A stretch of 851 nucleotides of DNA from a phage. The notes under the pieces are model-generated. The model saw nothing but the letters and a program-made list of their open reading frames with translations. It was not told the origin of the DNA and searched no databases. Below are positions 1 to 851 of this stretch, piece after piece; the stretch's first letter is position 1; each line of letters opens with the position of its first letter. The DNA is taken from the sequence record AB218929.1; one strand, written 5' to 3'. Made by a program: the position numbers and the translations under genes.

Positions 1-25
1 TTCGAGCTCGGTACCCGGGCGCGCC
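1..25. other. Cloning-vector polylinker (5' flank): tail of EcoRI site, SacI GAGCTC 4-9, KpnI GGTACC 10-15, SmaI/XmaI CCCGGG 14-19, AscI GGCGCGCC 18-25
   Basis: Seen in sequence: ttcgagctcggtacccggg matches the pUC-type MCS order EcoRI-SacI-KpnI-SmaI, followed by an added 8-bp AscI site. Overlapping, tightly packed restriction sites are characteristic of synthetic polylinkers. Confidence 0.9.
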
Positions 26-26
26 G

Positions 27-77
27 CTTCACTTAGCGAATGCATTAGCCTTAATCAACCAACGCCTGAAAAGGTAA
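27..77 (+). CDS. Probable 3' end of the maturation (A) protein gene, partial: last 16 codons (LHLANALALINQRLKR) and TAA stop at 75-77
   Basis: Frame 3 is open from the insert boundary to TAA at 75-77, 16 nt upstream of the coat start. In leviviruses the maturation gene ends shortly before the coat gene. No start codon is present because the fragment is 5'-truncated at the cloning junction. I cannot confirm the peptide from memory, so this is inference from gene order. Confidence 0.35.
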   Translation, partial: LHLANALALINQRLKR

Positions 78-81
78 ATAC

Positions 82-85
82 GGAG
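82..85 (+). promoter_or_regulatory. Shine-Dalgarno element (GGAG) for the coat gene, 8 nt upstream of ATG 94
   Basis: GGAG at 82-85 with suitable spacing to the ATG at 94-96. At the RNA level this is the coat ribosome-binding site. Confidence 0.6.
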
Positions 86-93
86 TTAGCCAT

Positions 94-486
94 ATGGCAA
101 CTTTACGCAGTTTCGTACTCGTCGATAATGGCGGTACGGGGAATGTTACTGTCGTTCCTGTTAGCAATGCCAACGGCGTCGCTGAGTGGCTTTCTAATAA
201 CTCGCGCAGTCAAGCTTATCGCGTGACTGCCAGTTATCGTGCGTCAGGCGCGGATAAGCGCAAATACACTATTAAGCTTGAAGTACCGAAAATCGTTACT
301 CAAGTCGTTAATGGTGTTGAGCTGCCCATCTCCGCATGGAAGGCTTACGCCTCTATTGACCTGACCATCCCGATCTTTGCTGCAACCGACGATGTGACTA
401 CTATTTCCAAGTCACTTGCCGGTTTGTTCAAAGTTGGGAACCCTATCGCGGATGCTATCTCTTCTCAGAGTGGCTTCTACGCGTAA
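94..486 (+). CDS. cp: Levivirus capsid (coat) protein, 130 aa, GA/BZ13-like (group II F-specific RNA coliphage); also the translational repressor of the replicase gene
   Basis: ORF from the track: MATLRSFVLVDNGGTGNVTVVPVSNANGVAEWLSNNSRSQAYRVTAS...GNPIADAISSQSGFYA. It aligns by eye along its full length with the MS2 coat protein as I recall it (FVLVDNGGTG, NGVAEW, SNSRSQAY, RKYTIK-EVPK, GVELP, LTIPIFA, GNPI conserved) and is near-identical to the GA coat protein as I recall it. Length about 130 aa, SD upstream, TAA stop at 484-486. Confidence 0.95.
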   Translation: MATLRSFVLVDNGGTGNVTVVPVSNANGVAEWLSNNSRSQAYRVTASYRASGADKRKYTIKLEVPKIVTQVVNGVELPISAWKAYASIDLTIPIFAATDDVTTISKSLAGLFKVGNPIADAISSQSGFYA

Positions 487-677
487 TGGGTCTGAAAGCA
501 AAACATAAGGAAAACCTATGTTCCGATTCACAGAGATCGAAAAGACTCTATGTATGGATCGCACTCGCGATTGTGCTGTCCGATTTCACGTCTATCTTCA
601 GTCATTGGATTTGGGGTCTTCTGATCCTCATTCTCCGGACTTTGATGGACTTGCCTACCTTCGTGATGAATGTTTAA
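486..677 (+). CDS. L: Levivirus lysis protein L, 63 aa, single-gene lysis protein with a basic N-terminus and a C-terminal transmembrane segment
   Basis: ORF from the track: MGLKAKHKENLCSDSQRSKRLYVWIALAIVLSDFTSIFSHWIWGLLILILRTLMDLPTFVMNV. Basic N-terminal part then a hydrophobic stretch. The segment LYVWIALAIVLSDF resembles MS2 L LYVLIFLAIFLSKF, including the conserved Leu-Ser dipeptide. ATG 486-488 overlaps the coat stop TAA 484-486 (TAATG). The gene lies in the +1 frame over the replicase start, as expected for levivirus L. Stop TAA at 675-677. Confidence 0.85.
   Translation: MGLKAKHKENLCSDSQRSKRLYVWIALAIVLSDFTSIFSHWIWGLLILILRTLMDLPTFVMNV
503..521 (+). promoter_or_regulatory. Coat-protein-binding translational operator hairpin (RNA level), GA-type: ACAUA-A-GG-AAAA-CC-UAUGU, containing the replicase start codon
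   Basis: Seen in sequence: acataaggaaaacctatgt folds as a 5-bp lower stem ACAUA/UAUGU, a bulged A (508), a 2-bp upper stem GG/CC and a 4-nt loop AAAA. This parallels the MS2 operator ACAUG-A-GG-AUUA-CC-CAUGU. The replicase AUG (518-520) sits in the 3' arm and the SD-like AAGGA (507-511) in the 5' arm. Confidence 0.85.
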
Positions 678-808
678 CTAAACATCCTTCGCTAGGGGAC
701 AGTAATTCGGACGCACGCCGTAAGGAACTGGCATATGCCAAACTTATGGATAGTGATCAAAGATGCAAAATCCAAAACAGTAACGGATACGACTACTCTC
801 ATATCGAG
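518..808 (+). CDS. rep: RNA-dependent RNA polymerase (replicase beta subunit), N-terminal fragment only, 97 native codons, 3'-truncated at the PacI cloning junction; frame stays open through the polylinker to 851
   Basis: My own translation of frame 2 from ATG 518: MFRFTEIEKTLCMDRTRDCAVRFHVYLQSLDLGSSDPHSPDFDGLAYLRDECLTKHPSLGDSNSDARRKELAYAKLMDSDQRCKIQNSNGYDYSHIE, then polylinker-encoded LIKSRVDCLNLQAC with no stop. The segment GSSDPHSPDFDGLAYLRDECLTKHPSLG matches MS2 replicase GSGDPHSDDFTAIAYLRDELLTKHPTLG as I recall it. The ORF is missing from the track, apparently because no stop codon is present. Confidence 0.85.
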
Positions 809-851
809 TTAATTAAGTCTAGAGTCGACTGTTTAAACCTGCAGGCATGCA
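809..851. other. Cloning-vector polylinker (3' flank): PacI TTAATTAA 809-816, XbaI TCTAGA 818-823, SalI GTCGAC 824-829, PmeI GTTTAAAC 831-838, SbfI/PstI CCTGCAGG 838-845, SphI GCATGC 845-850
   Basis: Seen in sequence: tctagagtcgac...ctgcaggcatgca is the pUC-type XbaI-SalI-PstI-SphI order, with the rare-cutter sites PacI and PmeI inserted. Confidence 0.9.

Follow-up and report, generated by a model that had tools for sequence, protein, structure and literature searches.

Coat and lysis region of the RNA coliphage SD copied into DNA between plasmid cloning sites, very probably a laboratory clone

In leviviruses, coat protein dimers bind the operator and repress translation of the replicase, and translation of the lysis gene is coupled to translation of the coat gene. 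Besides SD itself, the closest described relatives of the DNA analysed here are three group II coliphages, BZ13 DL20 (FJ483839), BZ13 DL10 (FJ483837) and GA (X03869 / NC_001426). They have the same gene order and the same gene overlaps, as well as the same operator and lysis-control hairpins, and differ from it at 31-36 nucleotides, 22-26 of which lie in the coat gene. The nearest solved coat structures are those of the GA capsid (1GAV) and the GA dimer (1UNA). In the NCBI taxonomy, phage SD is filed under Emesvirus japonicum, as are GA and BZ13. Together with TL2, TH1 and JP34, SD is among the levivirus strains with known lysis proteins (PMC3499819, published in 2012).

The window, by which we mean the whole analysed stretch of 851 bases, is very probably (we would put it at roughly nine in ten) a laboratory clone that carries the coat and lysis region of the RNA coliphage SD as DNA, with plasmid cloning-site ends. 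It is a read across a recombinant plasmid and part of no natural DNA genome. The first-pass annotation had called it an engineered plasmid insert, an RNA-phage cassette between AscI and PacI in a pUC-type polylinker, and each element of this description held. Similarity to phages stops at 25/26 and at 808/809, with polylinker on either side, intact AscI and PacI sites abut the insert, and positions 1-19, 818-829 and 839-851 match the pUC19 polylinker base for base, in pUC19 order. Likewise, the annotation had proposed that the boundaries cut the maturation gene on one side and the replicase gene on the other, and the gene remnants found at the two ends agree with this (Table 1).

For the interior, a match to the GA/BZ13 group had been expected over about 780 nt, and it was found over 783 nt at 95-96% identity. 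A megablast search of 50,697 phage records, in which the group II entries are complete genomes only, gave six matches of 89.9-96.0% identity, all to group II F-specific ssRNA coliphages, namely BZ13 DL20, DL10, a third BZ13 record (FJ483838), GA (two records) and KU1. All six cover query positions 26-808 or end within a few bases of them. The insert is colinear with these coliphages, with 96.0% identity to DL20, 95.7% to DL10 and 95.4% to GA. Aligned four ways with its extended neighbours, the window shows identity to GA, DL10 and DL20 from G26 to G808, except that for DL10, which differs at 808, identity ends at A807. Outside these limits, identity to the phage genomes is at chance level. The membership in the group II coliphages is carried by colinear identity, gene order, protein families and the position of the operator hairpin alike.

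The annotation had also held that the interior is not cellular DNA. A permissive blastn search of 72,556 plasmids, with the entire window as query, returned chance matches only, 21-31 nt long and with E values of about 10, in line with that view. With no plasmid match beyond chance, we rejected the idea that the interior comes from a cell or a plasmid.

The gene content is that of the central part of a levivirus genome. The open reading frames of the window correspond to the genes annotated in DL20, DL10 and GA, in the order maturation - coat - lysis - replicase (Table 1). Two plus-strand frames in the ORF list are complete, and a third opens at the replicase start and runs off the window end, while the minus-strand frames are all short (at most 50 aa). 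The ATG of the lysis gene overlaps the coat stop codon in the motif TAATG. All three protein families were recognized with Pfam scores above the cut-off, which was 25 bits for each of them. The replicase match covers profile positions 12-92 of 540, and 95 of the 97 residues in this stub are identical to the GA replicase. Its frame meets no stop before the window end and stays open through the polylinker. The NdeI site CATATG at 91-96, at the start of the coat gene, is natural, as the alignment shows it also in GA, DL10 and DL20.

Table 1. Features of the 851-base window, in the coordinates of the window.
Feature	Position	Strand	Basis or remark
Left vector polylinker: EcoRI remnant (ttc) 1-3, SacI 4-9, KpnI 10-15, SmaI/XmaI 14-19, AscI 18-25 (BssHII 19-24)	1-25		Site map
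Insert: cDNA from a group II F-specific ssRNA coliphage (Emesvirus japonicum), assigned to strain SD from its identical coat protein	26-808	+	Nucleotide identity to DL20/DL10/GA
Maturation (A) protein gene, 3' end: last 16 codons (LHLANALALINQRLKR) and TAA stop (75-77)	27-77	+	Maps to annotated CDS end in DL20 (1301) and GA (1308)
Maturation-coat spacer, 16 nt, with GGAG Shine-Dalgarno at 82-85	78-93	+	Sequence and alignment
Complete coat protein gene, 130 aa, TAA stop 484-486	94-486	+	ORF list; Pfam Levi_coat 129.5 bits; exact SD match
Hairpin just before coat stop and lysis start	452-476	+	Corresponds to X03869 1683-1707, annotated there as potential lysis-gene control structure
Lysis protein gene, complete, 63 aa; shares its 3' part with the replicase gene, which is read in another frame	486-677	+	ORF list; Pfam Phage_MS2_lysis 30.6 bits
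Predicted translational operator hairpin (putative coat-protein binding site)	502-522	+	Corresponds to X03869 1733-1753, 'pot. binding site coat protein'
Replicase beta-subunit gene, 5' part: 97 initial codons, truncated between two codons	518-808	+	Pfam RNA_replicase_B 82.7 bits
Right vector polylinker: PacI 809-816, XbaI 818-823, SalI 824-829, PmeI 831-838, SbfI 838-845 (PstI 839-844), SphI 845-850	809-851		Site map

Judged from its coat protein alone, the insert probably belongs to strain SD. An exact-sequence look-up returned BAE54359.1 / UniRef100_Q2V0T7 of Enterobacteria phage SD, which agrees at each of the 130 residues, so that no difference from the SD coat is detectable at the protein level. 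The UniRef100 cluster has one member (n=1), and the sequence is recorded for phage SD only. The exact match of the lysis protein, P34702, is common to JP34 and DL20 among others. A gene-position index of assembled contigs held no contig encoding either exact protein.

Two RNA hairpins accompany the coding regions (Table 1). The lysis-control hairpin is predicted to fold with -10.0 kcal/mol (z = -2.0), and the operator hairpin with -4.9 kcal/mol (z = -2.5). The operator is predicted to consist of two stems, of 6 and 2 pairs, with a bulged A (508) between them and an AAAA loop, and the start codon of the replicase (518-520) lies within its 3' arm. It is invariant in the four aligned phages. The operator hairpin of MS2 (Rfam RF02359) has the same position, enclosing the replicase start codon, and the same architecture of a stem, a bulged A, a short upper stem and a loop of 4 nt. 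However, its loop reads AUUA instead of AAAA, and the stem around the bulged A in the window also differs from the MS2 consensus. The predicted hairpin is the known GA-type operator variant annotated in X03869. The weak match of the RF02359 model (18.1 bits, under the gathering score of 40) is therefore expected.

Positions 487-610 contain no difference from DL20 or DL10, and one from GA (C531G), an invariance that would fit stacked coding and structural constraints. In the coat gene, by contrast with a redesigned sequence, the differences are mostly silent. Compared with each of DL20, DL10 and GA, 17-18 of its codons differ synonymously and 3-4 non-synonymously, a pattern which is that of natural divergence under purifying selection, and not of a recoded synthetic gene. 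The predominance of synonymous differences from its relatives thus points to the cDNA of a natural isolate.

The vector origin of the flanks is evident from their composition. The left flank (1-25) reads ttc-GAGCTC-GGTACC-CCCGGG-GGCGCGCC, the last three sites overlapping, and the right flank (809-851) reads TTAATTAA-g-TCTAGA-GTCGAC-t-GTTTAAAC-CCTGCAGG-GCATGC-a, where base 851 is the first base of HindIII. Together, the flanks hold 10 palindromic hexamers, which cover 57 of the 68 bases; 9 such hexamers occur in the 783-base interior, where about 12 are expected. Not one of 200,000 random pairs of a 25-mer and a 43-mer had at least 10 palindromic hexamers, the maximum being 8. The sites follow the order (EcoRI)-SacI-KpnI-SmaI ... 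XbaI-SalI-PstI-SphI-(HindIII) and have the sequence of pUC19, with which the window has in common the stretch 1-19 and the XbaI-SalI and PstI-SphI blocks. The AscI, PacI, PmeI and SbfI sites are extra in the window.

As a reference for pUC19, we read its polylinker in two loci of PLSDB. One of them (L004) carries the full polylinker with two mismatches, one of them in its left half. The other (L005) carries BamHI-XbaI-SalI-PstI-SphI-HindIII exactly, followed by lacZ-alpha and the lac operator, which are located past the HindIII side and read in the direction of EcoRI. The flanks as such were not retrieved from the large sequence collections. There was no match for the 43-nt 3' flank in PLSDB or the complete E. 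coli genomes, for the 35-nt XbaI-to-SphI pattern in GTDB genomes, IMG/VR or JGI metagenomes, for the PmeI-to-lacZ-alpha pattern in GTDB genomes or JGI metagenomes, or for the 5' junction pattern in IMG/VR. None of these collections is a vector database, therefore the missing matches do not count against a vector origin.

The vector is probably pNEB193 of NEB, which we take to combine the pUC19 polylinker with AscI, PacI and PmeI/SbfI sites at the positions seen in the window. The 5' junction of the window reads CCCGGGCGCGCC-GCTTCACTTAGCG, and at the SmaI/AscI junction pNEB193 presumably has CCCGGGGCGCGCC, that is, one more G than CCCGGGCGCGCC in the window, which is a point against this vector. 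The BamHI segment that lies between AscI and PacI in pNEB193 is replaced by the insert in the window, as expected after cloning. Published site lists are in keeping with this choice, as pNEB193 is described with a PacI site (PMC2396408) and with AscI, SbfI, PacI, BamHI and HindIII as cloning sites (PMC6548120).

The most plausible course of events is a simple one. A 783-nt RT-PCR product of the RNA genome of coliphage SD would have been cloned directionally between AscI and PacI, as indicated by the intact 8-base sites in the right order at both junctions and by the replacement of the stretch between them, which together point to a tailed PCR product. The recipient would have been a pUC19-type polylinker also containing PmeI and SbfI, most likely that of pNEB193. 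Primers tailed with AscI and PacI sites were presumably used, one for the conserved end of the maturation gene and the other for a site about 290 nt inside the replicase gene. The first 52 and the last 80 bases of the insert are identical to GA, which would be compatible with GA-derived primers, though it does not prove them. The insert carries the central module of the phage, with the tail of the maturation gene, the whole coat and lysis genes, the operator hairpin and 97 replicase codons, and the sequence appears to have been deposited with its 25 and 43 vector bases untrimmed. Within the plasmid, the RNA-level elements of the phage would be passive cargo.

In a vector of pUC19 type, the lac promoter lies beyond HindIII and reads toward EcoRI, which places the sense strand of the phage antisense to it. 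The insert is thus probably antisense to Plac, if the vector is of this type. Such a placement is sensible for holding a toxic lysis gene, and would also keep that gene silent. The clone was likely made for storage and for a comparison of coat and lysis genes by sequencing, rather than as an expression or operator cassette. Intervals of three separate the coat protein accessions of TL2 (BAE54353), JP34 (BAE54356) and SD (BAE54359), a hint at a set of parallel deposits covering the same region. The TL2, JP34 and SD clones are reportedly described in a 2006 paper in Microbiology and Immunology that deals with coat and lysis genes in group A RNA phages.

One claim of the first-pass annotation went further than the evidence, namely that of a deliberately designed coat-lysis-operator cassette. 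The boundaries could have been set by design for a functional construct, serving for example coat or virus-like particle production, the packaging of armored RNA, lysis expression, or RNA tethering by coat and operator. Such a purpose would agree with an insert that holds exactly the whole coat and lysis genes plus the operator hairpin, with the cut of the replicase at a codon boundary, and with the use of rare 8-base cutters for directional cloning. We nevertheless consider it improbable. The window contains no tag, promoter, terminator or engineered ribosome-binding site, and its promoter-like and terminator-like sites are at chance level only. The NdeI site at the coat ATG is natural, and the insert is an unmodified natural variant whose differences from its relatives are mostly synonymous. 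Moreover, a functional construct would have little use for a maturation tail of 16 codons, or for a stopless replicase stub of 97 codons running into the polylinker. The antisense orientation to Plac in a pUC19-type vector and the parallel deposits of TL2 and JP34, which point to a sequencing survey, also speak against it.

Both remaining explanations dispense with a laboratory construct, and both fail at the junctions. Fragments of vectors do contaminate public assemblies, as exemplified by the pUC polylinker and lacZ-alpha in the PLSDB record HM037272.1, so one may think of phage RNA-derived reads and contaminating vector reads that were joined without any real clone. However, an intact 8-bp site, AscI or PacI, lies precisely at each joint, the flanks have the correct order and orientation for a single polylinker, and the insert precisely replaces the AscI-PacI segment of the empty vector, which a random chimera would not do. 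We therefore rejected an assembly chimera, whose probability is very small. Even smaller is the probability that an ssRNA phage was copied by natural reverse transcription and the DNA then integrated in a cellular genome or plasmid, for which the only argument is that the window is DNA. Against it stand the synthetic polylinker flanks, the lack of a cellular plasmid match for the interior, the absence of the 5' junction from IMG/VR, and the lack of assembled contigs with the exact coat or lysis protein in the gene-position index. The polylinker flanks and the intact AscI and PacI junctions effectively rule out such a retro-copy.

As a clone of phage SD, the window is an ordinary one. The phage content has already been described, the coat and lysis proteins are already deposited, and the coat, lysis, operator and replicase start of a GA/BZ13-group levivirus are textbook biology. 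The importance of the window is one of housekeeping only. As an untrimmed clone, it should be kept out of analyses that assume a natural DNA context, such as those of neighbours, islands or operons, and its 68 vector bases should be masked.

A minor observation concerns the SD coat protein itself, for which V79I and V103T are the only differences from the TL2 coat. Both residues, I79 and T103, are private to SD among the compared coats. Position 79 is G in GA and V in DL10, DL20, TL2 and JP34, and position 103 is V in all five. The two substitutions may indicate a capsid variant that is distinct in function, for instance through a changed serotype or assembly, and that is absent from environmental assemblies, a reading we find very unlikely; if it were true, the clone would be the sole record of the SD capsid variant. 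V79I, in the region of the FG loop, and V103T are each a two-base codon change.

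A stretch of 124 nt in the insert (window 487-610) takes in the beginnings of the lysis and replicase genes together with the operator hairpin; it has no differences from the BZ13 strains DL20 and DL10, and one from GA. Directly upstream, the coat gene shows 22-26 differences from the same three genomes. Two coat residues are private to phage SD, each through a two-base codon difference (see table). At position 79, SD carries I, GA carries G, and DL10, DL20, TL2 and JP34 carry V.

Coat residues private to phage SD and internal restriction sites of the insert
Feature	Window position	Number of sites	Codon in SD	Codon in relatives
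Coat I79	328-330		ATC	GTT
Coat T103	400-402		ACT	GTT
HindIII	212, 274	2		
NdeI	91, 732	2		

The HindIII site at 274 arises from a base private to the window sequence, the G at 276. The insert has no internal site for AscI, PacI, PmeI or SbfI, which fits a selection of 8-base cutters for cloning. At the 3′ side, the replicase frame (window 518-851) comprises 97 phage codons, followed by in-frame read-through of the PacI-SphI polylinker. No stop codon occurs in this truncated frame between 518 and the window end at 851, and the translation of the replicase-polylinker fusion ends …HIE-LIKSRVDCLNLQAC.

In the left flank, the SmaI/AscI junction (window 14-25) reads CCCGGGCGCGCC, with three G, versus four in what we take to be the pNEB193 polylinker. 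This discrepancy could come from compression in a Sanger read, from another batch or derivative of the vector, or from an error in the pNEB193 sequence used for comparison. In the pUC19-type arrangement, as read from a plasmid locus in PLSDB (L005:300-420), the lac operator and lacZ-alpha are located past the HindIII end of the polylinker, with a reading direction toward EcoRI. Therefore, if the vector is of pUC19 type, the phage sense strand would be antisense to Plac, a position that would hold the lysis gene silent.

A second PLSDB locus, HM037272.1, is a "complete" natural plasmid record (B. thuringiensis plasmid pBMB0558), matched by the query at 13 places. Its positions 300-357 and 836-1000 carry pUC polylinker (two mismatches) and lacZ-alpha/lac-operator sequence, within a CDS annotated as hypothetical protein. 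The assembly looks contaminated by cloning vector.
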